DNA from: a virus
Lineage: Duplodnaviria > Caudoviricetes
IMG/VR virus record: IMGVR_UViG_3300037722_000592
Coordinates: 1 to 53,948 of that record
DNA length: 53,948 bases
Direction: 5' to 3' (one strand)
Shown: positions 22,601 through 53,948 of the stretch, in pieces
How positions within the stretch are numbered: the first letter of the stretch is position 1
Layout: the number at the start of each line of letters is the position of its first letter
The notes under the pieces: model-generated
What the model saw: only the letters and a program-made list of their open reading frames with translations
The model's database searches: none
What the model was told of the DNA's origin: nothing
Translations under genes and position numbers: made by a program

Positions 22601-25600
22601 AGTGAAGAAGACACCAATTCCCAAGACATCGGACCTCAAGCAGACCGTGATGCAAAGCGGGGCAAAACCGAGCCGGAAGCTGGCGCTTTTACACCTGATG
22701 AAAGCGAAGTACGGCCGCAAGAAGTAACTGGCGTAATCAAGGCGAAAGATGTCTACGGCAACACCCATTACATAAGCCAAGCGCAGCTGGATAGCGGCAA
22801 AACCCTGTTGCGCCGCTTGAACAAGAAAGGTGAGCCGCTTGAGGTTGAAAACACGCTTGTACATCGGGACAATATTGACCTGACCGGCGGAAAAACAACA
22901 GCCGCGCACAAAGGCGCTCTGTATATCGCAGGCAAGGAAGATAAGGGGTATGCCTCCCCTGCAATGGCCGAGCAAGGGATTAAGCGGCTGGGGCAAGACA
23001 TCGATGATTATACCATTGAAGAGGTGGGCGGGCGGTATGTGGCCATTCACAAGAAAGTTTCTGGTGGAAACCAAAAGGGAGCCAATGGAGATGTTCGCAC
23101 CGGTAAAAGCCAGCCTGATCAGGAGGTACAGGTTGCCGATGACGGCGACCAATCAGCAGATTCTGGACGCGATGGCCAGGGAAGACAGGCAGAACTCCGC
23201 ATCGAAGAGCTTTCCGAAAAGGCCATTATCATCAAGGGCAATACCCGTGAGCATAAAGACCGAATCAAGTCCGCCTCGCCAATCCGTGCTTTGTGGAATA
23301 AAGGCAAGGGTGGCTGGGTTTTTCCAAAGAATCGGGAGGCTGAGATCCGCGAGAGTTTGAAGGACCTTCTTGGAGAAGAAGCGAATACCCAGCCGAGCCA
23401 GCCCGGCGAATCGGCTGCTACGGATCGATCTGTGGACTACTCTTGGGCTATACGGGAACCCCCCCCGCAGGTATCGGCCCCTATGGTGATTGAGCCAAGG
23501 GTGACGGTATCATACCGGGGCAGAGAGTTGTCGGGTAAAGGCTACGCTGTCCCTGGAATCGAGGGCCTGGCTGTTAAGGTGGTCCCACCGAATGGCAGCA
23601 AGACTGACAGCACCAAAATGGGGTGGTCTGTTTGGGTGGGGGATGATCTTGTCTATGTGAATCCGCCAACCGTTCGTGCAACCGAACATTTGGACACCGC
23701 CCAAGAAGCGATCAAGGTTGCCACACCAAAACTGCGCCGGATATTTACGGCGATGCAGCAAGGCGGCTTTTCGGGGGTCGCACAGGCAACAGGTGATCAA
23801 CAGCAAGAGGCTGAAAAACAAACCCCGGACGCCTCTGACACAAGCGCACCATCTGGGGCCACTTCTTCCCCGAACCAACCCTTTGTTGACGCCATTGCCA
23901 CCAGAATAGAAGAGTGGGTCTCTACCGGGACAAACGGCGGGGCGCGAGCGCTTGACCGCCAGTGGGAGCGCGGGGCAGTCAAGCGCTTCTACGATTCCTA
24001 TCTAAAGGGGTCCTTCGCCGGTAGCAAAACTGGCGAGTGGGCAAGCGCCAAGGTTGCGGCAGGCAAAGCTGATAGCTTCGATGGGCTGAAAGCGGCTCTG
24101 GCAAAGTTGGTAGCCGTTAAGCCCGCGCCATCAACGCCAGTTATTCCGCAAAAAGAACCGTGGCAAATGACAAGAGCGGAGTATCTTGCGGCACCAAAGA
24201 CTGGAGATAAATACGACGGCGAAGCTTTCCGGTCCGGGAGACATTCTGAATCGGTAAGAAGGGCGATACAAAATAACGAATCGGTTCCAGTCGAAGTCCT
24301 GGCTGATTATCCAGGCCTGCAAGTAAAGGAAACCCCGGAATCTTTAACCAAGCAACCCGTTAAGGAAAAGGACACCCCGAAAGAACAAGAGGTTAAGCTG
24401 AAAGAACAGCTGAAGGGTTTCGGTGAGTCAAACAAAAAGTTTACCGCCGCCGACGCCGAAGAGGCTCGCCGCATCATGCGCGAGCAGCTGGGCCAGCTCA
24501 ACATGGGCCTTAACCCCGAGATGCTCAAGGCCGGGATTACCCTGGCCGGCTTTTATATCGAAGGCGGCGCCCGCTCTTTTTCGGACTATGCCAAGAAGAT
24601 GGTCGCGGATTTCGGCGACGCAATCAAGCCGCATCTCCGCCAGTTCTACGAAGCTATCCGCCAGGAGCCGGACTTTGACACCTCGGGGATGACCACCTAC
24701 GCCGAGTTGGAACTCCGGAAGGATGTGCCTGCGGTTGAGAGCACGCCAGATCCCAAGTCACTGGATGCGGTTGCCGACTATGAAGTGATCTTTGCCGATG
24801 AAAACCTGCGGTTTCAATTCCAGGACGAGCTTGACGACCTTTTCAACCACAAGATATTGGCGTTGGCCCGAGCATTAAGGGATCGCGGCTGGACGATGGA
24901 TCGTTCCATCGACAGGCTTTCCAAGGATGGGAAGCGGGCCGAAGTGGAGTTGACCCAGGTGGGTGCCGGGAAAAACGTGGTTGGCCTTTCAGTCAACGGT
25001 GTCCGGGTAGAACCAGGGGTGAATACGGCTGATACAGCCAATCGGATTGATGCGACCCTTGCGGCTGGATTTGACAAGGCGCAAGAGAAAGCCGATACTG
25101 AAAGCAAGGAGGCCCGCGATGATACAGAGCCACAGGGAAGCAATGAAGGCAATGGGGGCGCCATACGGTCACTCGCCCCTGCAACTTCGCAATCTGGCGA
25201 TCAAGCATTGGCAGGAATGGCTGCCGAAGATGGCGGCGACGCTGGCCAAGGAAAACAGGCTGATCTCTTCGGCGCTGGCCGCGGCCGAAAAAGTGCAACG
25301 CGGGATAAGCGAGCAGATGGCGGCCGGGATGCAGCACCACGAAGCAAAAGAGCTGATGCTGAAACGGTACATCCTCCTGGAGCCGGAGAGCGAAGTTTTG
25401 GAGAGCCTGGAACAGGAAGGGTAGAACCGGCCGCAATCCCCGGCAAAAACTTCAAAATCACCAAAGACCTAAAGCTTGGCGAAGGCAGTGAAGAGGTCAA
25501 GTTCCAGGATAACCTCGCCGCCATCTCCACTCTGAAACGGATTGAAGGCGAACAGCGCCGAGCTACCGCCGAAGAGCAACGCACCCTGGCCCGCTATGTC

Positions 25601-28600
25601 GGCTGGGGCGGCCTGGCCAACGCCTTCGCCAATCCGGTCACCGGCGATATCAGGGAAGGCTGGCAGGGCAGGGTTAAGGATCTGGCGGGACTGCTTACCG
25701 ACAACGAGCTTACCGTCGCTCGGAACAGCACAAAGGCGGCCCATTACACCAGCGAAGCCGTGGCCAGCCAGATGTGGGAGGCGGTTAAGCGTCTTGGCTT
25801 CAAACGCGGCAACGTCCTGGAGCCGTCAATGGGGATCGGCAACTTTATCGGCCTAACCCCGGAAGGCGTCACCGCCAACGTGATGGGAATCGAGTACGAC
25901 CCAATCACCGCCCGAATCGGCAAACTCCTGTACCCGCAAGCCACCGTAATCCATTCGGGCTTCCAGCAGGTACCGCTCCCGGAAGGCGTTTTTGACCTGG
26001 TAATCGGCAATCCGCCGTTCGGGCAAGAATCCCTGAACTTTCAACACTCCCCGCACTTGAACCGCCATTCCATCCACAATCAGTTCTTCCTGGCCGGGAT
26101 CGATGCCTTGCGGCCCGGCGGGATCCAGGCCATGGTGGTATCCAGGTACTTAATGGATTCCAAGGATTCCGGCGCTCGCGACGCTTTAGCCGCCGAGGCC
26201 AAGCTACTGGGCGTGGTCCGCCTACCCGAATCCGCCTTCAAGGAAAACGCCCGCACCGATGTGGTCACCGATATTATCTTTCTGCAGAAGAAGACCGAGG
26301 AGGAAATCGCCGCCACCGAGAAAGAAGAAGCGCCGGCCTGGACCAAGAGCACGGAAATTGAAGTCAACGGCGAACAGATTGCGGTTAATAAGTATTTCCA
26401 GAACAACCCCAGGGCCGTGATCGGCACAATGACCACAGCCAGTTCCCAGTTCAGCGGCGCATCATTGGTTGTGAAACTGGAAAAAGGCGCCGACCTTGCC
26501 AAGCTGATCAATGAGCGAACCGGCCAGATTCTGCCCGCCGGAGTCTTTACCCAGGAGAGCACCGCCGACCAAGCCCGAGACCATTTCGAAACCATGCGCG
26601 ACGGCATGGAGATCGCCCTGGCCGGACATGAAGACGCAAGTATCGCCTTTAACGACCTCGGCGAGTTGGTCCAGGTCCACGAGCGGGAGACGGAAGGCGG
26701 CGACTTTGTCCTTGCCAAGCGGGTTATTGGTGTTGGCTCGCCCTGGTCGCCGCATCTTGCCATGGACAAAGACGGCAACTGGTTCAGGGAAGTCGATAAA
26801 CTGGACGAAAAGGGCAACAAGATCAAGGTTGCCGACGAGAACGGCAAACTCACCAAGCGCAACGCCAAAAAACGGCAGGTCTTCAAAGACGTAGCCGAGA
26901 TTCCCCAAAGCATGACGATGAGCAAGCTCGATTACGGGCGGCTCAGGGATGCGGTCTCCTTGCTTGACGAACTGGTGGCGCAGGTCAATCTCGAAATCAG
27001 CGATGCCCCCAGCCTGGAGATCGAAGGAAATCGCAAGCAGCTCCGGCGGGCCTATGACGCCTTTGTCAAGAAACACGACCGGGTAAATGCCCCGGTCATC
27101 AATAAACTGATCAGTGACCTTCCGAACGGGCCGCTATTGATGGCCCTGGAGACTGTCTATAAGCCGCCTATCAGAAAGGACCGGGCCGAGAAGCTAAACA
27201 CCAAGCCACGGCCGGCCATTGTCAAGGAAGCGGCTATCCTGGATGAACGGGTGGTTTTCCCTTACGAGTCCCCGACTTCGGTCGAGTCAGCCAGCGATGC
27301 TTTGGCCGTGGTGCTGTCTGAATCGGGCCGAGTCGACCTTGGCCGGGTGGCGGATCTGCTCGGCCAAGGTCAAGATGAGGTTATCAAGGCCCTGCACCAT
27401 GAAGCCGAAACCCCGTTGATCTTCCTCGATCCTGAAACCCAGGAATGGGAAACCGCCGATGAATATTTGGGCGGCAACGTGGTAAAGAAGCTGGCGGCGG
27501 CCAAGGGGGACAGCGGCTATCCCAAGAACGTCGACGCCCTGGAGGCCGTGCAGCCGAAGGCATGGACCGCCGACCAGGTAACGCCCACCCTGGGCTCCAC
27601 CTGGATTCCCACCGATGTCTATGCCGGGTTTATTGCATCCCTGACCGGCAAGCCGGCGAAGGTGAATTTCTCGCCGCTGACCAATACCTACGCCGTTCAG
27701 GGCGAAGGCGGGACCCCAAAGGCCCAGAACTGGAATACCCCAAAGCGGAACGTGGTCGAGATTATCGAGGCGGTTCTGAACAGCCGGCCGATCCGGATCA
27801 CCGAGACTATCGGCTACGGCAGCGAGAAACGCACCGTTACCGACCAAGACAACACCGACCTTGCCAATGAAAAGGGCGAGGAAATTCGGGAAGCGTTTGA
27901 TGACTGGGTTTTCCAGGATGCCGGTAGACGCAAGCAGCTGGTGGATATCTTCAACCAAAAATTCAACGTCCGGGTTGTGAAGCAGCGGGACGGGCAGCAT
28001 CTCAAATTGCCGGGCAAAGTGCCGGATTCGGTAATCAAGATGCGGCGCCATCAGCTCAACGGGATCTGGCGCGGGATTGTCGACCGCTTTGTTCTCTATG
28101 ACCACGCAGTTGGCGCCGGCAAGACCTTTACCGGCATTGCCCGGGCCATGGAACGCCGCAGAATGGGGCTGTCCCGTAAGCCGCTGGTTGTGGTCCCGAA
28201 CCATCTGGTGGAGCAGTTCGCCGCCGATGCCTACAAGCTCTATCCTGGCGCCAAGGTGCTGGCGGCAGGCTCCAAGGATCTAAACCCGAAAAAACGCCGG
28301 CGGATGTTGGGCAAGATCGCCACCGGCGAATGGGACCTGGTGATTATGCCGCACTCTTCTTTTAAGTTTGTGGGGATTTCACCGGATACCGAAAGCCGTT
28401 TCCTGGAAGAGCAACTTCGTTTGGCGGAACAGGCCATTGCCGAGGCGCAGCAGCAGGCGGAGGAAGACGGCCTGGCCGGACACCGGAAACCGATCACGGT
28501 CAAGGAAGCCGAACGGCTCCGGGACACGATCCAAGGCCGGCTCGACAAACTCCGGACCAGGGGCAACAAGAAAGACCGGATGCTGAGTTTCGAACAGCTC

Positions 28601-31600
28601 GGGGTCGATGATCTGACTATCGATGAAGCGCACGAATTCAAAAACCTGTTCTACCACTCCAAGCTATCGGTCCGGGGGATGAACCCGAAAGAAGGCTCGG
28701 CCCGGGCCTACGATCTGTGGACCAAGGTGCGGGTGCTCCAGGAAAGCAAAACCGGCTCGGTTGCCTTTATGACCGGCACCCCGATCTCGAACAGCGCCGT
28801 CGAGATGTATGGCTTGATGCGTTATCTTGCGGCCGACGTGCTGGCGGATATGAACCTCGAACACTTTGACGCCTGGCGCTCTCAGTTCACCACGGTAACC
28901 ACCAAATATGAACCGACTGATAGCGGGCGCGGCCTCAAGGAAGTTAACCGGATCGGCCGGGACTGGTCGAATATGCGGGCCTTGATGGACGCCTACTACA
29001 CCTTTTCCGATTCGGTAAGCAACGGGGATATCCAGGCCTGGTACTCGGAAGACAACGACGGGGCCAGGTTCCCGATTCCCGAAGTAAAAGGCGGAGGCCG
29101 GCAGCAAGTCAATGTTGCCCCCACCGAAGCCCAGGAGCGGATCATTCAAGAGGTTGTAGCCAGGTACGAAGGCCTTGACGGGATCAAGGATGTCAAGGAG
29201 CGCAATAAAGAGCGCCTGCGCCTGATGGACCGGGCACGGAAGGTTTCCCTCGATGTCCGGGTAGTTGACCCTGCGACCGATTCAAAAGAAAGAGGGGGCA
29301 AGCTTGACGCCGTAGCCCGGCAGGTCCACCAGATATACCACGAGTGGCGCGAAGACAAGGGCACTCAGCTGGTCTTCCTCGACCGCAGCGTCCCAAAAGC
29401 CAAGGGTGATGCCGGGAAGATCCAGAAGTACGATGCTTTGCTCCGTGATCTGGAGGCTGCCGAGCGCAAGGGCGATGACGATAAGGCCCGGGCGGTGATC
29501 GGCAAGTTGGAGAAATACGACTACAACGAGATGCAAGAGCTGAAGATAGCGCAGACCGGGAGCTGGAACGCTTACCGGCAGATCAAAGAAAACTTGGTCG
29601 GCCTGGGAATCCCGGAAAACGAAATCAGATTTATTCAGGAAGCCAATACCGACGAACAGAAGAAGACCATGTTCGACGAAGTGAACGCCGGCCAGATCCG
29701 GGTCTTAATCGGGTCTACCCCACGGCTGGGCGCCGGCACCAACGTCCAGGAACGGCTGGTGGCCCTGCACCACGTTGACGTTACCTGGAAGCCATCCGAT
29801 ATCGAACAGCGCGAAGGGCGGATTATCCGGCAGGGCAACAGCCTGTTCGCCAAGTACGGCGAATCCTTCAAGGTCATCATTAACGCCTACACCACCGACA
29901 CTACCGTTGACCAGCGGCTCTGGGATCTCAACGCCACCAAGATGAGAATGATCAACGGGATCCGGAAATACAACGGCGACTTCAACATGGAGTTTGTAGA
30001 CGAGGACAGCGTGAGCATGGCGGAAATCGCAGCCCATGCCTCCGGCAACCCCCTGCAACTTGAACGGGTCCAGCTGGCCGCCGAGATCGATCGCCTGAAC
30101 CGGTCAAAACGCTCATTCGCCCGGCAGCAATGGGGGCAGAAAGACGCCTTGGAAGAGGCTGAAGCCAATATCAAAATCTTGCCGGAGACCATCAAGGCCC
30201 TGGCGCCGGAGGCGGAGAAGATAGCGGCGGAGATTGCCATGGTCGCGGAAGAGGTTAAGAGCCGGACGGTCACCATCGACGGCAAGGAATATGACCGCGG
30301 TCCTTGGGGTTCTAATGCCCACGATGCTTTGGCCGAGAAACGGGACCAGGCCAAAAAGAAGAAAGAGAAGTTTGAAGCCGATATCAACGGCAAGGTCTTT
30401 ACCTCTTTCCAGGACGCCAGCGCCGCGATTGATGATGTAATGGGAGACGGCGCCAACTTCGACGTGGAACTGGACGGCGAGAAATTCATCCGCCATCGCC
30501 GGGCCATAGGGAAGGTGGTCGAGCTTGCCAACGCGGTGATCGACAAGGAAGGTAAGGGGGCGGAGGTTGACTACACGCCGCTGGCCAAGATGCGAGCCTA
30601 CGGGGTCGATATCGATTTGGCCATACAGGTTGTCGACGACGGCAAGGGCCGCACCATCGAATTCCATTTCACCGGCAAGAAAGAGGCCAACGGTCAGCCC
30701 TTAACCTTGGTCCGCAGTATTTACGAAGCCAACCTTGGCGTTGACTATTACGCCCACAGCGCAATGTACGGCATGTTCAGCCGGCCGCTGAACGATGTAA
30801 CTTCGATCCCGAACCGGCTGAAGCAATCGCGCAAGAGGTTGGCGGAAGCCAAGGAGATGGCGCCGGAGCTGCGCAAGCTGGTCGATAAGCCATACCCCAA
30901 AGAACAGGAGCTGAGCGACAAAAAAGACCGGCTCAATGCGGTGGAGCAAGAGCTATCGAATTCGGCCGCCCCGAGCAAAGGTAAAACCACCGACGACGGC
31001 GAGGTCAAATTATCGCAATCATCCTCCCCCAGATCGGGCCAGCTGTCGACCGCGAGAACCCTGCAATCCATCGTGGACAGCTATCTGACCAGCAGCGGCC
31101 GGCGCGACCTGCAAGTGTCTGTGGTGCAGACCGTCGACCAGTTGCGGGCCGGCCTGGTTTTATCCGAAGGGGTAAGCGGCAACGTGGAGGGGGCCTTTGA
31201 TCCCCAGAGCGGCAAGGTCTTTCTGGTGGCTGACAATATCGCCACCACGGAGGCATGGGGCCGCATCCTGCATGAGATCACCCATAAAACCAGAGCCGAA
31301 CAGGGCTGGGGCGGGGTGTTCGGACGCGAAGCCGAGACCATCCTGAACGAAATCGACAAGCGCCTCGCCGCCGGGGCAACGGCCTGGAAGAAAGCCGAGC
31401 AACAAGCCAGGCAAGCCAGAACCTCCGCCGAGAACCTGCGGGAAGAAACTATTACCTACTTCCTGGCCGAACAGGCCAACAGCAACCAATCATTATGGCG
31501 CCGGATCGTCAATGCCATTCGGGCCTGGGCGGTGCGAGTCGGCCTGAAGCGCAAGGTCTCCGATGCGGATATCGTGGCCCTGGCGGAGAATTCGGTGCAG

Positions 31601-34600
31601 AGCCGGGCGCGGTCAACTGTTTCCGAAATGGAAAGTGCTGGCGATACCGTCCCGGCCTTCTCCGAGTCCAACGACATTCGGTACAGCCAGGCCGAGCTTG
31701 CCGCGGCAGCCAAGGCGTTCTTCTCCAAAAAAAACCCCTTCCTGGCCGATAAAGCCAACGAATGGCTGGATAAAGCCGATCCGAAATGGCGGGACCGCTG
31801 GGAGAATATTGTTTATATGGTGGCGGACAAGGATGATCCTAAACGCCTAATCCAAAACCGCTACGGTGAGCAGAGCGAAGAAACCGACTACCTGATGGCC
31901 GAGCGGCTCAGGGGGAAACAGACCGCCGCCGAGGTGGAAAAACTAGCCAGGGAAGAGGTTAACCCGCTGCTGGAGTTTCTGGCCAAAAGCAAGCTGGAAA
32001 TCGCCGACCTGGAAGAATATGCCATGGTCAAGCATGTCCCCGAACGCAACGCGCAAATGCGCCGGATCAACGCTAAACAGTATCTCGGCAACATGACAGC
32101 GCTGTTCACCGGAAAAAAAGAAGAAGAACTGCGGTATGAGATCGGCAATGCGGCGGCCGAGATTGACCGCGAGGACCGGCGCGACAGCTACCTTGACCTG
32201 TTGGCCAAGGAGTTCGCCGGCCTGGACGATTACGGCGACAAGGTGCGGGCGGGAAGGGAGAAACTTGAGGCCCGAGAGTTCACCGCCGAAGAGATAGATA
32301 AGGGAACCCCAGAGCGATTGGAGCGCAACCAGCGGGCCGCCGAGCGCCGTGTTGACCAGTTGTTGAAGCTCCGGGGCCAATGGGGAGACCGCAGTCTTCG
32401 GTTTGCCGGGATGACCGACGCGGAAGCGGCAGAGATTCTTGATAAATGGGAAGCTGACCGACGCTACCCCGAGGTTGAGCAGGCCAGGAAGCAGCTTGCC
32501 AAGATAAACGATGGCCGCCTGGTGGCATTGATTGAAGGTGGTGAGATCACCAAAGACCAGGCCAACCAGATCCGCTCTACATATAAATATTATGTGCCCT
32601 TCAACCGGGAAGGCTTTTCGGATGGCAAGCCCGCTACCGGTAGAAGCACCGGGCCGCTTGGCAAGGCGATCAAAGGTGCCTCTGGGTCACTTCGCCGGGT
32701 GGTGGACATTCTCGCCCATAGCGTGGCGAATCGCCAGGCGGCAATCAGCCGAAAGCACAAGGCTTTGGTTGGCCGGAAACTCTACAACCTGGTCCGGGAG
32801 AATCCCGATCCGGACAACTGGTGGATAGAAGAGCAGCCCAAGGAGGCCGGCCACGATCAAGATGGCAACGTCACCTTCCACAACCAGTTTAAAGAACCGG
32901 CCAACGGGGTCCCCCTGAAACTGGATGGCAAGATATACACGGTCATGGTCAACCGCGAAGACAACACCATGATGCGGATGGTCGAGTCGATAAAGAATAT
33001 GGATGTCGGGATGGGACCGTTTATCCGGGCGCTGTCCAAGATAAACCGGCTGCTCGCCGCCCTGAACACCTCCTTTTCGCCAGAGTTTATTCTTACCAAC
33101 CTACTGCGGGATATGCAGACGGCCGGGATTAACCTTGAAGATTCGGAAGGGAGGGGTGCTCAGAAGCAGATTTTTAAGAATATGCTTACGGCAATCAAGG
33201 GTATCTATAAGGCGGAACGCGGCACCGACAGCGAATGGGGCAAGAAGTACCGGGATTTTGAGAAGAACGGCGGCAAGATCGGCTGGATGCAGTCATACGA
33301 CACCATTGAAGATCTGGCCAGCGGTCTCGGTGAAGAGATGAAGCTTTACCAGGAAGGCCACACCGCCAAAAAAACGGTGCGGAAACTTCACGACCTCCTG
33401 AAAACATCCAACACCGCCATTGAAAACGGAGTGCGGTTGGCAACCTATGATTATCTGGTGAATACCAAGGGGCTTAATAAGCGCAAGGCGGCGCTGATCG
33501 CCAGCAACCTGACGGTTGACTTTACCCGGCGGGGCGCGGCCGGGCCGAATATCAACGCCCTTTATATGTTTGCGAATGCGGGAATTCAGGGGAATATCCG
33601 GATGATTAAGGCCGCCGTGCGAAGCGGGCGGGTGCGAACCATGCTTGGGGCTATTGTCGGCACCGGTTTTATAATGCACTTGCTCGCCCTGGCGACCGGC
33701 GGCGATGACGATGACGGTATGGCTTTCTACGACAAAGTGCCGGACAGCATGAAAGAGCGCAATATGATCGTCATGCTCCAGGACGGCAAACGGGTTACCG
33801 TGCCGATGCCATACGGCTATAACATCTTTTTCAATCTTGGCGATGAACTGGCCGAGATGATGGTGGCGGCCATGGCGGGCCGGGAATACAAGCAGACCAA
33901 AGGGGTGGCCCGGATGTTCTCGGTGTTCTCGAACACCTTCAACCCGATGTCATCAGCTACTTTGCTCCAGACAGTGCTGCCGACCGCACTGGACCCGGTT
34001 GGCTATATTGCGGAAAACAAGACTTGGTTTGGCGGGGACTTGATGCCGTCCGGGAACCCTTTTGCCACAGTGCCCGAGCCTAATTCGCAACGGTTCTGGA
34101 AATCGGTATCGCCGATCAGTAAGGCGGTTGCTCAATCCTTGAACCGCCTTACTGGCGGCGACGCGGTGAAGCCGGGCCTGATCGATGTCTCCCCGGAAGT
34201 CCTTGACTTGATTATTGACACCTACTCCGGTTCGGCCGGCCGGTTTGTCAAAGACACTATGATGTTACCGGTCCGGGCCGCAACCGGGCAGCTGGAGGCG
34301 AATAAAACGCCGATAGCCAGGCGCTTCTACGGCGAACAGTTTGAGGGGGTTAATTCCGGGATATACCGGGAACAGGTCAGGGAAGTAATGACCGTCCACA
34401 ACCAATACCTGGCGGAACCGGACCGCGCCCGGCGCCAGGAGATCAAGGGAAAGGAACTTTTCGGGCTCATCCCGCTGGTTAAGGAATCTGAAAAGGTGAT
34501 CGGAAAACTACGGAAGATTAAAAAGATTCGGGAAGGGAGGGGTGACGACACGACCTTGCTGGAGGATCAGATCGAGAGAATACAAAAGAAGGTTATTGCG

Positions 34601-34621
34601 AGATATCGGCAAACCTTGTAA
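19667..34621 (+). CDS. Giant 4984-aa polyvalent virion protein: InPase-like (~21.7-22.1 kb), N6-adenine methyltransferase (~25.4-26.3 kb), SF2/SNF2 helicase (~28.0-30.0 kb, DarB-like), zincin-like peptidase (~31.2-31.5 kb), LPD38 (~33.7-34.3 kb)
   Basis: ISIENP.GS.RSG...YGY.KGT.G.D.DHVD...FDEHK; LEPSMGIG and IGNPPF; HAVGAGKT, IDEAH, TGTP, GTNVQ, EQREGRIIRQGN; LHEITH...EE; YDKVP...KERN...VPMPYGY...ENKTWFG. Confidence 0.9.
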   Translation: MRDTFDRVAKKDKDSAGKGLGEVFARVAPERTIGDTATDIGIDLLKGAISVPESFVGLADIPTGGRVGKGLESIGYKPAEAKEILSDQYSPARKAAGQKVNEAQGLVDTVSAAIQNPSVIASGALESLPLMGAGGVVGRGLGILGKAGKMSGVLRGAVGEGAVSAGMTAEQIRGETDDKLLSPSQSALAAASGAATALFAQLGGKLAQKAGIGDVDTYLARLPGEEAKRVKKNLVRRAVEGFVSEGVFEELPQSVQEEIAQNVALGKPAFEGVDQAAALGMLSGGLIGGGFNALNSAGTDTPADESTPPADVPAKPPGPLANAAAAGGIPGLGDTLRTHAFVPDDRRGPEAARLRARDETKAQFEDNLAGLNTRSRGIPSSASQSAEVFAAAGPTELEKQVALRTQREAELEQTFSSLQTEEQQTANRDKAKDEAGLDPIHNLRTEIKKRGGLNLDNLKVDYDNETTKALIKKLPGIVKRGGAVELDDIADEMRHYGYKSADDLLRALVESPTRREAEARAVKGIDAGYGHDNRLNESADELDSKGFEPVFAQRPAVDLNLGDKVVTGQDANLPADEYEVKGETSDGRIILEDGVRREVDAFDALNIEGIKRSGKQGFGVPGAVEPSAPVRQPGSSSRESKGVGGDSSPASTEQVTNPASTAHGQEVNTSPSEPMKKAENYKKAHVNVDGHQISIENPVGSMRSGQDDAGKRWEQELKADYGYFKGTVGYDKDHVDTFIKPGYKGGSETVHIVNQHKKDGSFDEHKVVMGADSSADALAVYNQNYESGWTGGKSVVAMPAVQFGKWVKSDAPKTGELLDGEARGLATIEQIKALIPAKKHSMIREQLAEVEELLAEGAPGYTVGQWAETLADLADNQEKWKFGDKNADRPAAEAIIGQVDPAGQYGISYDFKQRGGWAFTIRDLNGRVNGEPLGEKDMDGTFTRISKSIFRLTPSELLKEIAKQQDAFGIIDGGATSDSEEDTNSQDIGPQADRDAKRGKTEPEAGAFTPDESEVRPQEVTGVIKAKDVYGNTHYISQAQLDSGKTLLRRLNKKGEPLEVENTLVHRDNIDLTGGKTTAAHKGALYIAGKEDKGYASPAMAEQGIKRLGQDIDDYTIEEVGGRYVAIHKKVSGGNQKGANGDVRTGKSQPDQEVQVADDGDQSADSGRDGQGRQAELRIEELSEKAIIIKGNTREHKDRIKSASPIRALWNKGKGGWVFPKNREAEIRESLKDLLGEEANTQPSQPGESAATDRSVDYSWAIREPPPQVSAPMVIEPRVTVSYRGRELSGKGYAVPGIEGLAVKVVPPNGSKTDSTKMGWSVWVGDDLVYVNPPTVRATEHLDTAQEAIKVATPKLRRIFTAMQQGGFSGVAQATGDQQQEAEKQTPDASDTSAPSGATSSPNQPFVDAIATRIEEWVSTGTNGGARALDRQWERGAVKRFYDSYLKGSFAGSKTGEWASAKVAAGKADSFDGLKAALAKLVAVKPAPSTPVIPQKEPWQMTRAEYLAAPKTGDKYDGEAFRSGRHSESVRRAIQNNESVPVEVLADYPGLQVKETPESLTKQPVKEKDTPKEQEVKLKEQLKGFGESNKKFTAADAEEARRIMREQLGQLNMGLNPEMLKAGITLAGFYIEGGARSFSDYAKKMVADFGDAIKPHLRQFYEAIRQEPDFDTSGMTTYAELELRKDVPAVESTPDPKSLDAVADYEVIFADENLRFQFQDELDDLFNHKILALARALRDRGWTMDRSIDRLSKDGKRAEVELTQVGAGKNVVGLSVNGVRVEPGVNTADTANRIDATLAAGFDKAQEKADTESKEARDDTEPQGSNEGNGGAIRSLAPATSQSGDQALAGMAAEDGGDAGQGKQADLFGAGRGRKSATRDKRADGGRDAAPRSKRADAETVHPPGAGERSFGEPGTGRVEPAAIPGKNFKITKDLKLGEGSEEVKFQDNLAAISTLKRIEGEQRRATAEEQRTLARYVGWGGLANAFANPVTGDIREGWQGRVKDLAGLLTDNELTVARNSTKAAHYTSEAVASQMWEAVKRLGFKRGNVLEPSMGIGNFIGLTPEGVTANVMGIEYDPITARIGKLLYPQATVIHSGFQQVPLPEGVFDLVIGNPPFGQESLNFQHSPHLNRHSIHNQFFLAGIDALRPGGIQAMVVSRYLMDSKDSGARDALAAEAKLLGVVRLPESAFKENARTDVVTDIIFLQKKTEEEIAATEKEEAPAWTKSTEIEVNGEQIAVNKYFQNNPRAVIGTMTTASSQFSGASLVVKLEKGADLAKLINERTGQILPAGVFTQESTADQARDHFETMRDGMEIALAGHEDASIAFNDLGELVQVHERETEGGDFVLAKRVIGVGSPWSPHLAMDKDGNWFREVDKLDEKGNKIKVADENGKLTKRNAKKRQVFKDVAEIPQSMTMSKLDYGRLRDAVSLLDELVAQVNLEISDAPSLEIEGNRKQLRRAYDAFVKKHDRVNAPVINKLISDLPNGPLLMALETVYKPPIRKDRAEKLNTKPRPAIVKEAAILDERVVFPYESPTSVESASDALAVVLSESGRVDLGRVADLLGQGQDEVIKALHHEAETPLIFLDPETQEWETADEYLGGNVVKKLAAAKGDSGYPKNVDALEAVQPKAWTADQVTPTLGSTWIPTDVYAGFIASLTGKPAKVNFSPLTNTYAVQGEGGTPKAQNWNTPKRNVVEIIEAVLNSRPIRITETIGYGSEKRTVTDQDNTDLANEKGEEIREAFDDWVFQDAGRRKQLVDIFNQKFNVRVVKQRDGQHLKLPGKVPDSVIKMRRHQLNGIWRGIVDRFVLYDHAVGAGKTFTGIARAMERRRMGLSRKPLVVVPNHLVEQFAADAYKLYPGAKVLAAGSKDLNPKKRRRMLGKIATGEWDLVIMPHSSFKFVGISPDTESRFLEEQLRLAEQAIAEAQQQAEEDGLAGHRKPITVKEAERLRDTIQGRLDKLRTRGNKKDRMLSFEQLGVDDLTIDEAHEFKNLFYHSKLSVRGMNPKEGSARAYDLWTKVRVLQESKTGSVAFMTGTPISNSAVEMYGLMRYLAADVLADMNLEHFDAWRSQFTTVTTKYEPTDSGRGLKEVNRIGRDWSNMRALMDAYYTFSDSVSNGDIQAWYSEDNDGARFPIPEVKGGGRQQVNVAPTEAQERIIQEVVARYEGLDGIKDVKERNKERLRLMDRARKVSLDVRVVDPATDSKERGGKLDAVARQVHQIYHEWREDKGTQLVFLDRSVPKAKGDAGKIQKYDALLRDLEAAERKGDDDKARAVIGKLEKYDYNEMQELKIAQTGSWNAYRQIKENLVGLGIPENEIRFIQEANTDEQKKTMFDEVNAGQIRVLIGSTPRLGAGTNVQERLVALHHVDVTWKPSDIEQREGRIIRQGNSLFAKYGESFKVIINAYTTDTTVDQRLWDLNATKMRMINGIRKYNGDFNMEFVDEDSVSMAEIAAHASGNPLQLERVQLAAEIDRLNRSKRSFARQQWGQKDALEEAEANIKILPETIKALAPEAEKIAAEIAMVAEEVKSRTVTIDGKEYDRGPWGSNAHDALAEKRDQAKKKKEKFEADINGKVFTSFQDASAAIDDVMGDGANFDVELDGEKFIRHRRAIGKVVELANAVIDKEGKGAEVDYTPLAKMRAYGVDIDLAIQVVDDGKGRTIEFHFTGKKEANGQPLTLVRSIYEANLGVDYYAHSAMYGMFSRPLNDVTSIPNRLKQSRKRLAEAKEMAPELRKLVDKPYPKEQELSDKKDRLNAVEQELSNSAAPSKGKTTDDGEVKLSQSSSPRSGQLSTARTLQSIVDSYLTSSGRRDLQVSVVQTVDQLRAGLVLSEGVSGNVEGAFDPQSGKVFLVADNIATTEAWGRILHEITHKTRAEQGWGGVFGREAETILNEIDKRLAAGATAWKKAEQQARQARTSAENLREETITYFLAEQANSNQSLWRRIVNAIRAWAVRVGLKRKVSDADIVALAENSVQSRARSTVSEMESAGDTVPAFSESNDIRYSQAELAAAAKAFFSKKNPFLADKANEWLDKADPKWRDRWENIVYMVADKDDPKRLIQNRYGEQSEETDYLMAERLRGKQTAAEVEKLAREEVNPLLEFLAKSKLEIADLEEYAMVKHVPERNAQMRRINAKQYLGNMTALFTGKKEEELRYEIGNAAAEIDREDRRDSYLDLLAKEFAGLDDYGDKVRAGREKLEAREFTAEEIDKGTPERLERNQRAAERRVDQLLKLRGQWGDRSLRFAGMTDAEAAEILDKWEADRRYPEVEQARKQLAKINDGRLVALIEGGEITKDQANQIRSTYKYYVPFNREGFSDGKPATGRSTGPLGKAIKGASGSLRRVVDILAHSVANRQAAISRKHKALVGRKLYNLVRENPDPDNWWIEEQPKEAGHDQDGNVTFHNQFKEPANGVPLKLDGKIYTVMVNREDNTMMRMVESIKNMDVGMGPFIRALSKINRLLAALNTSFSPEFILTNLLRDMQTAGINLEDSEGRGAQKQIFKNMLTAIKGIYKAERGTDSEWGKKYRDFEKNGGKIGWMQSYDTIEDLASGLGEEMKLYQEGHTAKKTVRKLHDLLKTSNTAIENGVRLATYDYLVNTKGLNKRKAALIASNLTVDFTRRGAAGPNINALYMFANAGIQGNIRMIKAAVRSGRVRTMLGAIVGTGFIMHLLALATGGDDDDGMAFYDKVPDSMKERNMIVMLQDGKRVTVPMPYGYNIFFNLGDELAEMMVAAMAGREYKQTKGVARMFSVFSNTFNPMSSATLLQTVLPTALDPVGYIAENKTWFGGDLMPSGNPFATVPEPNSQRFWKSVSPISKAVAQSLNRLTGGDAVKPGLIDVSPEVLDLIIDTYSGSAGRFVKDTMMLPVRAATGQLEANKTPIARRFYGEQFEGVNSGIYREQVREVMTVHNQYLAEPDRARRQEIKGKELFGLIPLVKESEKVIGKLRKIKKIREGRGDDTTLLEDQIERIQKKVIARYRQTL
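25071..25112 (+). promoter_or_regulatory. Internal sigma70-type promoter and RBS inside the giant gene
   Basis: TTGACA (25071-76), 17-nt spacer, GATACT (25094-99); AAGGAGG at 25106-12. Confidence 0.65.
25119..25424 (+). CDS. Overprinted (+1 frame) 101-aa helical protein, distantly TnpV-like
   Basis: Perfect SD 6 nt before ATG25119; AIKHWQEWLPKM...HEAKELMLKRYILLEPE; host frame is a low-complexity linker here. Confidence 0.65.
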   Translation: MIQSHREAMKAMGAPYGHSPLQLRNLAIKHWQEWLPKMAATLAKENRLISSALAAAEKVQRGISEQMAAGMQHHEAKELMLKRYILLEPESEVLESLEQEG

Positions 34622-51190: not shown

Positions 51191-51394
51191 TCAGCACCCC
51201 ACCCGATAGAAAAAGTTACATTTATCGCACCTGTATTCTAGATACGACGTCTCAGGGCGGGTTATTCTGAGCCGGTGCCCCTTCTTCTTGATGCAGTCCG
51301 TTACGAGCGGGGGGACATCTTCGCCCCAATCCGCCGAATCTCCTAAATCGATCTTCCTTTCCGGCTGTGTAGCCGGAGATGGTGTTTGTGGCAT
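51191..51394 (-). CDS. Small Cys-containing hypothetical protein
   Basis: GGAGG RBS; first gene after the leftward promoter. Confidence 0.6.
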   Translation of the reverse strand: MPQTPSPATQPERKIDLGDSADWGEDVPPLVTDCIKKKGHRLRITRPETSYLEYRCDKCNFFYRVGC

Positions 51395-51430: not shown

Positions 51431-51461
51431 TATTCTTACATAAAGAATAGGATGGTGTCAA
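51431..51461 (-). promoter_or_regulatory. Leftward sigma70 promoter overlapped by a palindromic operator candidate
   Basis: TTGACA (51461-56), 17 nt, TAAGAA(T); TATTCTT-n5-AAGAATA at 51431-49. Confidence 0.65.
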
Positions 51462-51483
51462 GCGACAATGCTAAATAAAGCTA

Positions 51484-51511
51484 TTTACATTTATCGCTGG
51501 TGTGGTAAGCT
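51484..51511 (+). promoter_or_regulatory. Rightward promoter driving the cassette array
   Basis: TTTACA (51484-89), 16 nt, TAAGCT (51506-11) with extended -10 TG. Confidence 0.6.
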
Positions 51512-51512
51512 G

Positions 51513-51643
51513 GCATTACGATAAAACTCAGAGGAAGCGGGAGAACTTGAAATGAGTGGAGTAGAAGTAGCAACGGGCGAACTGGTAAAAGATAAGATTG
51601 GTGGCGGAACGGCCCCGCTTTCCGCTGAAGTGACGGGTTGTGC
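51513..51643 (-). repeat. attC-like site 0 (131 bp, degenerate outer box)
   Basis: + strand GCATTAC-gataaa-ACT-CAGAGG-AAGCGGG...CCCGCTT-[T]-CCGCTG-[A]-AGT-gacgg-GTTGTGC. Confidence 0.7.
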
Positions 51644-51926
51644 CCTCCGGTGCTTGGCCGCATTGGGGCATGTCGAAGTGGCTAATCAAAGATGCGGGGC
51701 GAGATATAAAGACGGCCCACGGGTGCCTGGCCCTCAAAATCCGCCCGTATGGTGCGACCTCACCGCCGGGCACGACGGCCCGCATCGACACGCCAGCGGC
51801 CATCATTGGGTGACAATGGATCGCCTAGACCTGATAGAGGTGAAGCCGATACCAGCCCTCTGCGCTAAATGCGGGGTTCGGTGGCCATGCGCTGACGCGG
51901 AGAAGGTTTTTAATGCCCTTATTTAA
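51552..51926 (+). CDS. Cassette 0 gene, Cys/His-rich hypothetical protein
   Basis: GGGAG RBS and ATG inside attC0; C...GHDGPH and CAKCGVRWPC motifs. Confidence 0.65.
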   Translation: MSGVEVATGELVKDKIGGGTAPLSAEVTGCALRCLAALGHVEVANQRCGARYKDGPRVPGPQNPPVWCDLTAGHDGPHRHASGHHWVTMDRLDLIEVKPIPALCAKCGVRWPCADAEKVFNALI

Positions 51927-51927
51927 G

Positions 51928-52010
51928 GCATAACGGCCAGCCTAACCGGGCGGCCCAAGATTAATTTTTGCCGGATGCGTTGCTCGCTCCGGTTGAGGTA
52001 CTGGTTATGT
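51928..52010 (-). repeat. attC-like site 1 (83 bp)
   Basis: + strand GCATAAC-ggccag-CCT-AACCGG-GCG...CGC-[T]-CCGGTT-[G]-AGG-tactg-GTTATGT. Confidence 0.88.
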
Positions 52011-52228
52011 GGAAATTTTTCAAATGGGGGGCGAAAAACCACCCTGGAAATCCGATCTACTTGCTGGCGTTTGTTGGAGTGTGGCTGGCCGCCATGAAAA
52101 ATGCTGACATTAAAAGCGGTATTATTGCGGGCATTGTTGCTACGTGTATTTTGGTGTGCGCGTATGTCTTAACTAGTATTTCTGTTGGGAAGGCTAACAG
52201 AGGGTTGGTTGATGATTATTACACATAA
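52007..52228 (+). CDS. Cassette 1 gene, small two-TM membrane protein
   Basis: ATG within GTTATGT box (alternative in-frame TTG51968 in the attC loop); stop is the TAA of ACATAAC. Confidence 0.7.
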   Translation: MWKFFKWGAKNHPGNPIYLLAFVGVWLAAMKNADIKSGIIAGIVATCILVCAYVLTSISVGKANRGLVDDYYT

Positions 52229-52309
52229 CGACAGCAATAAGCCGCCCATATACGGCGGTGGATTAAGGCCGGATGCGTGGTAGGTCGGCCTTAATTGGCC
52301 TTGTTATGC
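52223..52309 (-). repeat. attC-like site 2 (87 bp)
   Basis: + strand ACATAAC-gacag-CAAT-AAG-CCG-CC...GG-[T]-CGG-[C]-CTT-[A]-ATTG-gcctt-GTTATGC. Confidence 0.85.
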
Positions 52310-52334
52310 CTTTAAATCAAATGAGGAGGCGGCT

Positions 52335-52583
52335 ATGTTTGGGAAGGTAAGCGAAGGGGTAAAGATGCTGGCGCAACATATGGTCGACCATCCTGAAGAT
52401 TGGATACAAGGCCAGTACCATTACTCAAATACCAAATCACGAGATATTAATATTTGGACTGCAAACGGTGATAGCCATATTGCTTTTGAAGGGAACAAAT
52501 GCCTGAACAAAGCAGAGCAGAAATACTTGGCAAATGCTATCAAAAAATCAATAGCCAAACGAGCTATAGCGGCTACAGCATAA
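52335..52583 (+). CDS. Cassette 2 gene, hypothetical protein
   Basis: GAGGAGG RBS; stop is the TAA of GCATAAC; AT-rich. Confidence 0.75.
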   Translation: MFGKVSEGVKMLAQHMVDHPEDWIQGQYHYSNTKSRDINIWTANGDSHIAFEGNKCLNKAEQKYLANAIKKSIAKRAIAATA

Positions 52584-52668
52584 CGGCTGGCATAACCAGC
52601 CGCGCCAATGAAGTGAAACCTGTATGCCGCCAGCGTTCTTGCGGTCTGCGTTAATGCCCTGGTTGGGC
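52578..52668 (-). repeat. attC-like site 3 (91 bp)
   Basis: + strand GCATAAC-ggctg-GCAT-AAC-CAG-CCGC...GCGG-[T]-CTG-[C]-GTT-[A]-ATGC-cctg-GTTGGGC. Confidence 0.88.
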
Positions 52669-52689
52669 TTTTAAATTAGGAGGAATAAA

Positions 52690-52872
52690 ATGTTCGGAAT
52701 CCTTAAAAACGTGACTAAGGCCATTGTTGGTGTCGCAACCATTCCGCTTGATGTTGCCGCCGATGTAGTGACCCTTGGCGGTGCTTGTAACGATAAGAAG
52801 AGGCCCTACACCGCTGAGAAAATTTCTTCCATTATGGAGAATTTGGGAAAGGCTGTTGACCCTGACGAATGA
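52690..52872 (+). CDS. Cassette 3 gene, small hypothetical protein
   Basis: AGGAGG RBS; MFGILK...P.DVAADVVTLGG. Confidence 0.75.
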   Translation: MFGILKNVTKAIVGVATIPLDVAADVVTLGGACNDKKRPYTAEKISSIMENLGKAVDPDE

Positions 52873-53945
52873 AACAGCCCAACGACCAGCATCACCGGAC
52901 GCGGCAACTGAACATGATGAAAAAAATCCCAAGCTTCCCGCGTTCCGGTGAATGCGCTTGTTACACGGTCCTTGACCTGTTCTCGGGGATAGGTGGGTTT
53001 TCTTTGGGCCTGACGAGGGCCGGATTCCGCACCACGGCGTTTTGCGAGATTGAAGAATACCCAAGGTCGATACTGCGTAAACACTGGCCGGATGTCCCGA
53101 TTTTTGAAGACGTGAGGAAACTACATGCCGCAGACCTGCCAGAGCCAGTTACCGTTATTTGCGGAGGCTACCCTTGCCAGCCGTTCAGTCTTGCCGGGCA
53201 GCGAAAGGGCAAGGACGATGACCGCCACCTCTGGCCGGAGATTGTGCGAATTATACGAGAACTGGATGCCACCACAGGAAAGCCCACTTGGTGCATTTTC
53301 GAGAATGTTGCTGGCCACGTCAGTATGGGCCTCGACCAGGTGCTTATTGACCTGGAAGCTGAAGGTTACGCCGCGTGGCCGTTTATTGTTCCAGCTTGCG
53401 CCGTCAATGCCCCCCACCGCAGAGACCGGGTGTGGATTGTTGCCCACCATGCGGGCCGGACTGACCGGCGACATAACCCCGGAGAGGTGCAACGACAAGA
53501 ACCGCAACCTGGAAAAGGCATTGGCGTTGATGTTGTTTCCGCCTCCACACGCCAGTTGCTCGACCGGGGCCGGGACTTCCGGGCGGCAGGGCGGAATGAA
53601 CTTGCAGACTGCCGTTGCTTTGTTGCCGACTCCGACGCAAAGCATGGTGACGTTCCAGGACTTCGAGCAGGCCAAATACCACAGCAGCAAGAGGCCGGAA
53701 TACAGCAAGATTCTTTTGCCGACCCCCAAAGCGAACAAGCCAGAAGGGTATTCGAGCCCTGGTTTTCGGCCAACCCTGAATCAGGTAGTGACCTGCGAGG
53801 ACAAGCCGGTGAGTGGATCACTCTGCCCGGAGTTCGTGCGCGAAATGATGGGCTACCCGGAAGGGTGGCTAGATTAAAGGCTTTGGGGAATGCCGTTGTC
53901 CCGCAAATCCCGGAGCTAATCGGACGGTGCATAAGGGCCGTGTAA
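52869..53945 (+). CDS. Cassette 4 gene, C5-cytosine DNA methyltransferase alpha chain (start 52869 or 52914/52917)
   Basis: Motifs I DLFSGIGG, IV GGYPCQ, VI FENV, VIII HRRDRVW, X LKALGNAV; no motif IX in this frame. Confidence 0.9.
   Translation: MKQPNDQHHRTRQLNMMKKIPSFPRSGECACYTVLDLFSGIGGFSLGLTRAGFRTTAFCEIEEYPRSILRKHWPDVPIFEDVRKLHAADLPEPVTVICGGYPCQPFSLAGQRKGKDDDRHLWPEIVRIIRELDATTGKPTWCIFENVAGHVSMGLDQVLIDLEAEGYAAWPFIVPACAVNAPHRRDRVWIVAHHAGRTDRRHNPGEVQRQEPQPGKGIGVDVVSASTRQLLDRGRDFRAAGRNELADCRCFVADSDAKHGDVPGLRAGQIPQQQEAGIQQDSFADPQSEQARRVFEPWFSANPESGSDLRGQAGEWITLPGVRARNDGLPGRVARLKALGNAVVPQIPELIGRCIRAV
52877..52966 (-). repeat. attC-like site 4 (90 bp)
   Basis: + strand GCCCAAC-gacca-GCAT-CACCGG-ACGCGG...CCGCGT-[T]-CCGGTG-[A]-ATGC-gctt-GTTACAC. 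Confidence 0.9.
53125..53877 (+). CDS. Nested +1-frame methyltransferase beta chain carrying motif IX
   Basis: GAGGA RBS at 53114-18; LLPTP repeats; C-terminal LCPEFVREMMGYPEGW. Confidence 0.75.
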   Translation: MPQTCQSQLPLFAEATLASRSVLPGSERARTMTATSGRRLCELYENWMPPQESPLGAFSRMLLATSVWASTRCLLTWKLKVTPRGRLLFQLAPSMPPTAETGCGLLPTMRAGLTGDITPERCNDKNRNLEKALALMLFPPPHASCSTGAGTSGRQGGMNLQTAVALLPTPTQSMVTFQDFEQAKYHSSKRPEYSKILLPTPKANKPEGYSSPGFRPTLNQVVTCEDKPVSGSLCPEFVREMMGYPEGWLD

Positions 53946-53948
53946 CGC
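53940..53948 (-). repeat. Start of attC-like site 5 (truncated by window end)
   Basis: GTGTAAC, exact complement of GTTACAC at 52960; contains the methyltransferase stop codon. Confidence 0.7.

Follow-up and report, generated by a model that had tools for sequence, protein, structure and literature searches.

A probable integrase-less attC cluster with mirror-image cassettes at the end of a phage operon

Results

The end of a rightward operon in the phage record IMGVR_UViG_3300037722_000592 (53,948 nt; the whole record is called the window below) most likely carries a genuine cluster of attC sites lacking an integrase (CALIN). The + strand, which is also the coding strand, would be the one that folds and is cut, and the cassettes would be mirror images of the usual ones.

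Four attC sites at the end of a phage operon

The array region contains the following features.

51552..51926, + strand: ORF1 (124 aa), from the ORF list; weak match to phrog_20343 (E 5.8e-5)
51928-52010, + strand (bottom strand): attC site A; boxes GCATAAC / GTTATGT; extrahelical G16 and T23
52007..52228, + strand: ORF2 (73 aa), from the ORF list; weak match to phrog_30424 (E 1.6e-3)
52223-52309, + strand: attC site B; three extrahelical bases, T-C-A, on the 3' arm, one position farther out
52335..52583, + strand: ORF3 (82 aa), from the ORF list; GAGGAGG ribosome site ahead
52578-52668, + strand: attC site C; extrahelical A16, C20 and T24 on the 3' arm
52690..52872, + strand: ORF4 (60 aa); AGGAGG ribosome site; full-length match to phrog_33676 (E 4.9e-15)
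52877-52966, + strand: attC site D; extrahelical A16 and T24 on the 3' arm
52914..53945, + strand: C5 cytosine DNA methyltransferase (PF00145, E 2.8e-39; phrog_363, E 3.4e-77)
53939..53948, + strand: probable left box of another site, either an attC or an attI junction, truncated where the record stops

All four complete hairpins are of the attC type, with AAC...GTT boxes on the + strand. The initial annotation had counted five; the fifth is only a left box cut at the record end, where a further site probably begins at the methyltransferase stop. With filters off, the sole additional + strand candidate was a weak 10.8-bit match at 51604-51643, inside ORF1. A CALIN is defined by at least two co-oriented attC sites with no integrase nearby, and here four co-oriented sites fall within 1.04 kb. 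No TIGR02249 (IntI) candidate, as expected of a complete integron, was found anywhere in the record. Since the record is 89% complete and ends 3 nt past the last crossover motif, with about 11% of the phage missing, this absence of intI holds for the record only.

Genes and sites are tightly interlocked. The ORF2 ATG lies inside the right box of site A and its TAA inside the left box of site B, the ORF3 TAA lies inside the left box of site C, and the methyltransferase TAA lies inside a left-box-like GTGTAAC. The only usable in-frame starts of the methyltransferase are in the loop of site D or farther upstream. The earlier observation that TAA falls exactly before the left-box C in three of five genes is borne out for ORF2 (52226-52228), ORF3 (52581-52583) and the methyltransferase (53943-53945); ORF1 and ORF4 have no TAA abutting that C. 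ORF1 precedes the first crossover point, its stop codon being 5 nt ahead of the site A left box; it could belong to the backbone or be the tail of an older cassette. Two membrane helices were predicted by eye in ORF2.

Pfam and PHROG matches, together with the ribosome sites, identify + as the coding strand in the window. Compositional rules were less dependable. GC by codon position worked on the window backbone (35,964 versus 237 bp), failed on the window cassettes, where the antisense of the methyltransferase was called coding, and mis-called three Novipirellula loci. The longest-ORF rule failed in high-GC loci (1 versus 6 in viral contig L080, though PHROG matches show +). Because such calls are unreliable in places, our claims rest on loci with homology, indel or substitution evidence. 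GC skew in the window simply tracks gene direction. For a rightward fork, as from the putative origin that the initial annotation placed at 43.1 kb, the geometry with the + strand as lagging-strand template is correct, and it might favour hairpin folding as that annotation suggested.

The hairpins have attC anatomy

In the available text of Nivina 2016, the attC bottom strand carries AAC on one arm and extrahelical bases on the opposite arm at positions 16, 23/24 and, optionally, 20; the window sites fit these rules, including spacers of 4-6 nt. Inverted R boxes with 5'-AAC...GTT-3' bound all four sites, and none of the 45 aligned family members departs from these triplets. Site lengths of 83-91 nt fall within the 57-141 nt typical of attC sites with variable terminal structure.

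Extrahelical bases occupy one arm, opposite the AAC arm and at about the canonical positions, in 4/4 sites. Direct reading of the sequence places them on the 3' arm of the + strand every time, as initially described; the alignment script agrees for A, C and D, and for site B it finds three bulges on the 3' arm and one on the 5' arm. The first extrahelical base is A, not the usual G, in three of the four sites. A 6-bp stem separates G16 from T23 in site A, the inner part of site B is branched with two local hairpins, and site C ends in a small GC hairpin followed by a T run. The script gave unpaired spacers of 5/4, 5/5, 5/4 and 5/4 nt for A to D, site A becoming 6/5 when a G:T pair is left open. 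A 5' spacer one base longer, previously reported for four of five hairpins, is thus seen in three of four and fails for site B.

Across the 45 family members, 95.8% of cells were paired versus 81.9% in shuffles, and changes on both sides occurred at 15 of 21 pairs; none of 500 shuffles reached these values, in an alignment that was model-fitted and so favours structure. Slid controls of the same alignment were at most 36% paired. Single-site folding energy was only modestly better than that of shuffles (z -0.9 to -2.3) with neither strand favoured, the minus strand being slightly better on average, and G:T pairs (5 on + versus 4 on -) and purine fraction (0.48-0.54) were likewise strand-neutral.

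Hairpins placed between cistrons on the transcribed strand might instead work mainly at the level of RNA or transcription, as intercistronic stabilisers, attenuators or processing sites that merely resemble attC. The pairing of the ORF2 start codon in site A and the GC hairpin with T run of site C would suit such a role. Even so, we consider it highly improbable: a terminator scan called none of the four sites as a + strand terminator, an RNA role leaves the invariant AAC/GTT, the unpaired spacers and the bulges at 16/20/24 unexplained, and the same attC family fills a chromosomal integron beside intI.

The coding strand has bottom-strand polarity

Two covariance models were used to assign polarity. 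R1 was built from the + strand of sites A, C and D, with B left out of training; R2 was built from canonical bottom strands only, as a stand-in for the curated IntegronFinder model attc_4. R1 scored 82.1 bits on + versus 9.4 on - for site A, 91.4 versus 18.2 for D, and 94.4 on + for C; untrained site B scored 24.0 versus 5.9. When both strands were scored with the bottom-strand model R2, as the initial annotation had suggested, the whole window gave two matches only, D at 11.4 and A at 11.3 bits, both on + and both weak (E about 3.5 over the whole window); sites B and C were not detected by R2. An Rfam scan of the window, with a release that holds no attC family, returned no matches.

Reference sites of known polarity agree with this call. 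R2 detected all 12 canonical sites outside its training set, each on the bottom strand, which is also the strand on which R1 matches canonical sites. In 72 viral intI loci, 19 of 20 R1 matches lay on the intI-coding strand, upstream of intI, and R2 gave 36/36 matches on that strand in 14 viral loci. The bulge script placed extrahelical bases on the 3' arm of the bottom strand in the integrons of Vibrio phage p16 and Shewanella M16-3 and in the class 1 cassettes of MH445380.

Judged from sequence, the + strand is the recombining bottom strand of sites A-D. The earlier proposal that the coding strand has bottom-strand geometry is upheld by the reference integrons, by R1 and R2, by the position of intI in same-family integrons and by natural cassette indels. 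It follows that ORF2-4 and the C5 methyltransferase are antisense to the canonical cassette layout: where a canonical cassette has a top-strand ORF followed by attC, 4/4 of these genes are on the bottom strand.

Could the sites be canonical and their polarity misread, so that + is the top strand and every gene precedes the attC that belongs to it? A hairpin does follow each of ORF1-4, TAA inside the 5' box is also common in canonical cassettes (as in L005 and L008), and folding energies and G:T counts do not favour +. This reading is already largely refuted and keeps only a very small probability. In none of the four sites do the extrahelical bases occupy the arm expected of a top strand, both models and the intI-anchored polarity in the same family make + the bottom strand, and indel junctions in relatives lie at the left box. 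It would also part the methyltransferase from its own start codon; with the start inside site D, the two remain joined only if D is assigned to the gene that follows it.

The reversed layout recurs in related viral contigs

Several IMG/VR viral contigs with the same or related attC families share the reversed layout (L012, L014, L116/L117 and L143), and the set includes a complete 47-kb temperate phage with its own IntI. In related phages intI lies directly downstream of the array. L116 and L117 have 99%-identical flanks and differ by three cassette-sized indels; read on the intI strand, 6/6 junctions fall in the left box, at AAC|G (AA|C). The crossover initially predicted at AA|C of the left box thus coincides with every junction of the natural indels in related viral contigs. 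Each inserted unit opens with attC, after which come a ribosome site and ATG. In the 3313-region of L116 the start codon lies inside attC, as in ORF2 and the methyltransferase, and both features sustain the earlier view of a cassette as attC and then gene.

Homologous methyltransferase cassettes occur on the intI strand in L143, L116/L118, L128, L111 and L012. In L012 the methyltransferase (37-774) is followed by a full attC (763-817); in L143 the next element is an attC with the methyltransferase TAA in its left box.

A different history would have the ORFs as ordinary operon backbone genes, into which gene-less attC elements were inserted later by integrase-mediated recombination between attC and genomic sites; the cassette-like units would then neither have originated nor moved as cassettes. 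An ORF3 homologue, 53% identical, sits in viral contig L009 as a normal gene of a packed phage operon with no attC nearby, and ORF4, like the L014 genes, falls into phage protein families. The preprint of Loot et al. (10.1101/2022.09.11.507474) documents cassettes inserting either way round at short genomic GWT sites. Site D has close counterparts in L012, L015 and the chromosomal integrons of Planctomycetota. In L012 and L015 the likeness ends precisely at the AAC and GTT boxes, with no attC-gene linkage visible, so a travelling neighbour gene is not identifiable from the alignment. We nevertheless regard late insertion as unlikely, since L116 and L117 gain or lose whole attC-plus-ORF units exactly at AA|C, start codons lie within attC (ORF2, the methyltransferase and the L116 3313-region), stops fall at TAA|C as expected for units selected to move together, and several viral integrons share a unit of attC and then a C5 methyltransferase.

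Protein searches revealed no close relative of the phage itself, its SbcC-like ATPase finding one 30%-identical locus. ORF4 gave no related locus and ORF3 only the attC-free L009, the window TerL had no match in genomes G001-G003, and two exact-word scans of metagenome contigs, based on the end of the record and on the site C 5' arm, returned nothing. Cassette turnover is therefore seen only in other viral contigs. A first degenerate-pattern search yielded three viral loci, none with real attC sites; among candidates, L002 was rejected as an attC locus and has instead a short repeated AAC..GTT motif at gene ends.

Same-family chromosomal integrons are canonical

The same attC family is present in the Planctomycetota MAGs SMAG_U12054 and MGR_bin356, with sites nearly identical to site D; for Novipirellula sp. 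SH528 the link consists of two single pattern matches only. In a Planctomycetota MAG integron (intI 472 bits), same-family attC sites lie on the intI strand. These chromosomal integrons share the attC sequence family and the attC-intI geometry with the phage arrays. Unlike in the window, their ORFs occupy the top strand: of 18 segments, 17 have the longer ORF there, and a longest-ORF count gave 83 top-strand versus 14 bottom-strand ORFs.

The idea of a phage-specific design therefore holds in part. The reversed layout recurs in L012, L014, L116/L117 and L143, and same-family Planctomycetota chromosomes are canonical, but the design is not phage-wide: TJE1 has a canonical array, both strands of L015 bear real genes, and some viral IntI loci, such as L134, look canonical.

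Discussion

In the integron model, strand selection by the integrase serves to place promoterless genes correctly for the Pc promoter. [quoted passage not shown] With the cut at AA|C, the mobile unit would run from attC through the ribosome site to the ORF, often ending in a TAA that abuts the next crossover, and would mirror the textbook cassette of a top-strand ORF followed by its own attC. Since the reversed genes could not be read from Pc, we infer that a phage promoter at the array's far end drives their transcription by read-through. If the four sites are active, their integrase might come from the host or from a phage-borne intI, which the missing 11% or so of the record could hold. A host integrase is a candidate because the attC family is that of Planctomycetota chromosomal integrons, which would also point to the presumable host.

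Taken jointly, the observations tip slightly towards a phage-borne integron lineage with mirror-image cassettes and its own cassette pool. Some members would carry IntI as the last gene of the early operon, and others, like the window, would have lost it. The attC, ribosome site, ORF and TAA|C would all be on the recombinogenic strand, with a phage promoter replacing Pc, and new cassettes would enter at the 3' end of the operon beside intI. The cassette pool, including methyltransferases, would be distinct from that of host chromosomes despite the shared attC family.

Reverse-oriented cassettes are known from Vibrio superintegrons, where they mostly encode toxin-antitoxin systems with their own promoters and form a minority scattered among canonical cassettes. 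They share with the window an ORF antisense to attC polarity. In the window, by contrast, all units are reversed and tightly packed, with no room for promoters.

Phage arrays have precedents. The accessible part of Qi et al. 2023 (PMC9892861) reports recombination of phage attC sites by IntI1 and, as in the window, intI-less attC arrays in phages with DNA methyltransferases among the cassette genes. The TJE1 and PH101 arrays are presented there as organised like ordinary bacterial ones, unlike the window with every gene on the bottom strand. In the "inverted integrase" integrons of the Treponema type, as outlined in Cury 2016 and the IntegronFinder description, intI is flipped relative to attC, and genes and intI point the same way, a feature shared with the reversed layout. 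In L014, L116/L117 and L143, unlike that type, the intI-attC geometry is regular and the ORFs are flipped; intI is on the attC bottom strand in these contigs, in keeping with the R1 matches on the intI strand. The accessible text of Loot et al. (10.1101/2022.09.11.507474) shows through genomic attG insertion, SALINs and small CALINs that attC units can enter a genome without attI; this could be a path into phages, and that text is silent on gene orientation within the cassette. No published description of the reversed layout was found in the literature surveyed; the 14 further phage CALINs of Qi et al. 2023 may include reversed arrays.

If this model is true, the same recombination machinery would support a second mode of expression, in which transcription reads through from a phage promoter upstream. 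The idea lends itself to direct testing, since sites, strands and a candidate phage integrase sequence are all known. It would have consequences for calling cassette genes in viral metagenomes and for counting them, and mirror-image cassettes would give phages a route for exchanging small accessory genes, including anti-restriction methyltransferases.

Hairpin sites at the right end of the window

The window record (53,948 bp, linear, 89% complete according to CheckV) carries rightward genes from 1 to ~40 kb, leftward genes from 40 to 51.4 kb, where RecT and an SbcC-like ATPase are encoded, and a short rightward block from 51.5 kb. This block comprises ORF1 to ORF4 followed by a C5 cytosine methyltransferase gene, and ends 3 nt short of the record end. 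Four imperfect hairpins of 83–91 nt lie between its genes (unpaired bases are numbered from the + strand 3′ end):

51928-52010, + strand: site A, G16 and T23 unpaired with six pairs between them
52223-52309, + strand: site B, three unpaired bases, one position further out
52578-52668, + strand: site C, A16, C20 and T24 unpaired
52877-52966, + strand: site D, A16 and T24 unpaired

Each site has inverted boxes with conserved AAC and GTT triplets, an unpaired spacer of 4–6 nt and a helix whose unpaired bases all lie on a single arm. The initial annotation had counted five complete hairpins; four were found, and the best additional candidate, within ORF1, scores 10.8 bits. A left-box motif, GTGTAAC, contains the methyltransferase stop and probably belongs to a further site, cut by the record end. 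R1, an attC covariance model built from sites A, C and D, scored site B, which was not in its training set, at 24.0 bits on the + strand versus 5.9 on the - strand. A model-fitted alignment covered 45 family members, taken from the window, from viral contigs and from one chromosomal integron. In it, 95.8% of the cells are paired versus 81.9% in shuffles, 15 of the 21 pairs vary on both sides, and the observed values were attained by none of 500 shuffles. Folding energies of single sites show only a modest advantage over shuffles.

Coding strand of the cassette genes

The + strand is the coding strand of the window cassette genes. On this strand the methyltransferase matches PF00145 (E 2.8e-39) and ORF4 matches phrog_33676 (E 4.9e-15), and a homologue of ORF3, 53% identical, is present in the viral contig L009. 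Ribosome sites precede ORF1, ORF3 and ORF4, and a weaker GAGG precedes ORF2. The first ATG of the methyltransferase falls within the loop of site D and no usable start codon lies downstream of D; only an attC-then-gene reading keeps this gene and its start together.

A second, same-strand long open frame (53125-53877, +) overlaps the methyltransferase frame (52914-53945). Comparable second frames overlap the C5 methyltransferases of the retrieved loci L012 (41-700) and L143 (1841-2551), making three diverged homologues in all. Both PHROG families matched, phrog_363 by the main frame and phrog_1008 by the second, are labelled DNA methyltransferase, and the Pfam match covers the N-terminal half alone, in the main frame. 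Recoding, dual coding or a database artefact could each account for the overlap. Elsewhere, the structural region contains a single ORF of 4,984 codons (19667-34621, +), an unusual length for a phage of 54 kb.

Polarity of the sites

In a canonical cassette, attC follows an ORF carried on the top strand, and it is the bottom strand of attC that folds and recombines. According to Nivina et al. 2016, the extrahelical bases of the bottom strand sit opposite the AAC arm, with G16 and T23 in the attC-aadA7 type and positions 16, 20 and 24 in the VCR2 and oxa2 type; the unpaired positions in A, C and D agree with these bottom-strand positions. As controls we used the Vibrio phage p16 integron, the Shewanella M16-3 integron and the class 1 cassettes in MH445380, whose polarity is set by the integron integrase gene (intI) and annotated genes. 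An alignment script placed the bulges of all three on the top-strand 5′ arm and the bottom-strand 3′ arm. In the aadA1 site, G and T are unpaired on the 3′ arm and the spacers measure 6/5, a pattern identical in site A.

R2, a covariance model built only from canonical bottom strands, recovered all 12 canonical sites outside its training set, each on the bottom strand. Over the whole window it gave two weak matches only, D (11.4 bits) and A (11.3 bits), both on the + strand, and missed B and C. At sites A–D, the two strands are not distinguished by G:T pairs, purine content or folding energy.

A degenerate 5′-arm pattern revealed the same attC family in the viral contigs L012, L014 and L015 and also hit 63 genome stretches; the four stretches with at least two matches all come from Planctomycetota MAGs. 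In one, SMAG_U12054, whose sites are near-identical to site D, intI (472 bits) and the R1 matches share a strand and the array lies on the expected side. With the L014 IntI as query, 72 viral loci were retrieved; of the 20 R1 matches in these loci, 19 are located upstream of intI and share its strand. R2 placed 36/36 matches on the intI strand across viral intI loci (14 loci). This polarity, anchored by intI of the same family, indicates that the window + strand is the bottom strand. The bulge rule with its controls, the R2 matches and the intI geometry together support the proposal that the coding strand is the recombining strand.

Since the + strand is both coding and bottom, every window gene downstream of a site is antisense to the canonical layout, and the inversion of attC relative to these genes holds throughout. 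Chromosomal integrons of the same attC family are canonical: the top strand carries the longer ORF in 17 of 18 segments, and the longest-ORF rule assigns 83 ORFs to the top strand versus 14 to the bottom, in 7/7 loci.

In the SMAG_U12054 integron, R1 confirmed at least 18 sites on a single 56-kb contig (L016, L056); L040 is on a second contig. Integron integrases (E <= 1e-60) occur in 28 of 151 sampled Planctomycetota genomes, 27 of the 28 above the curated cut-off.

Crossover point

Two viral contigs, L116 and L117, have flanks that are 99% identical and differ by three cassette-sized indels:

L116 3306-3738: indel
L117 2317-2850: indel
L117 4700-5383: indel

At all six junctions, identity runs through the left-box AAC and one G before divergence begins. 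The inserted units start with C and attC, continue with a ribosome site and a same-strand ATG, and end in ...AA; one has its ATG within the right box, the arrangement of window ORF2. These junctions, observed in relatives and not in the window, match the predicted AA|C crossover, and the indels provide evidence of recent integrase activity in viral integrons.

Proposed mechanism and expression

We propose that an integron integrase, host- or phage-derived, would fold the + strand of consecutive sites and cut at AA|C, excising or inserting attC-plus-gene units. No integron integrase candidate was found in the window record. Since the genes point towards intI, the Pc promoter would be unusable and the cassette genes would have to be transcribed from upstream. 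A promoter scan found no + strand promoter for the rightward block; a TTTACA...TAAGCT pair at 51485-51511 can be read as a candidate. As geometry, the lagging-strand argument holds for a rightward fork from the putative origin, and GC skew tracks gene direction in the window.

The 13-mer TTACATTTATCGC occurs twice, at 51217-51229 and 51487-51499, ~270 nt apart, the second copy within an imperfect palindrome (hairpin 51461-51498) between the leftward and rightward blocks. The repeat looks like a shared operator/promoter element of a putative divergent control region. A -35/-10-like pair lies on the - strand at 51461-51432.

Recurrence in viral integrons

L014 (contig positions 15420-27424) is part of a 47-kb complete tailed temperate phage contig (IMG/VR ..3300048839_000431) with genes for portal, large terminase, major head protein, protease, tape measure, tail protein, helicase and phage integrase. 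The array is directly followed by intI (L014 7023-8084), which shares its strand with the R1 and R2 matches and encodes a true integron integrase, scoring 426 bits where the cut-off is 265. PHROG matches were obtained for four of six + strand ORFs of the array (one weak, E 0.007) and for none of three - strand ORFs, and composition-selected ORFs are on + in 5/5 cases. The locus has at least six attC sites, array genes co-directional with intI and the phage integrase immediately downstream; two array genes are paralogues (phrog_5086), both terminating in ...GCCCAA|C.

In L143, a ParB-methyltransferase, attC, a C5 methyltransferase (TAA|C), attC, a small ORF (TAA|C), ~75 nt and intI follow one another, all genes and sites on one strand. 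L012 has four + strand sites among + strand genes, one of them after a homologue of the window methyltransferase. Upstream of viral intI, substitutions at codon positions 1/2/3 number 298/228/619 in + strand ORFs and 472/316/300 in - strand ORFs; of 19 aligned pairs, 15 favour +, one favours - and three are flat. ORF counts across these loci vary with the rule: 43 +, 21 -, 57 undecided and 8 skipped by ORF fill, 66 + versus 61 - by longest ORF, and 114 versus 16 by composition, a rule that fails elsewhere.

In the viral contig L002 (- strand; near 73, 378, 873 and 1163), a short CCAAC-GGCTTGC-GTTAC-type motif recurs where small genes preceding the terminase genes end. It resembles attC R boxes without L boxes and was not matched as attC by R1.

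Phage CALINs (attC arrays without integrase), methyltransferase cassettes included, are described by Qi et al. 2023 (PMC9892861). Cassette insertion at genome sites is described by Loot et al. (preprint 10.1101/2022.09.11.507474), and an 'inverted integrase' integron type by Cury et al. Full-text searches of main articles yielded no arrays described with all genes on the bottom strand and no phage integrons with genes co-directional with an intI of regular geometry.

L015, whose PHROG-supported genes lie on both strands, has real-looking top-strand (canonical) genes at 847-1452, 1640-2217 and 2699-3208 (-) in an otherwise rightward phage array, one of its - strand genes matching phrog_1244 (E 4e-37). 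They may represent cassettes from the host pool that bring their own promoters.

The suggestion of a phage-specific design thus stands in part: the reversed layout recurs in L014, L143 and L012, but the TJE1 phage array is canonical and L015 is mixed, with phage nature confirmed for one intI-bearing contig only. Together, our results indicate that the reversed cassette design is recurrent, not universal, in phages.
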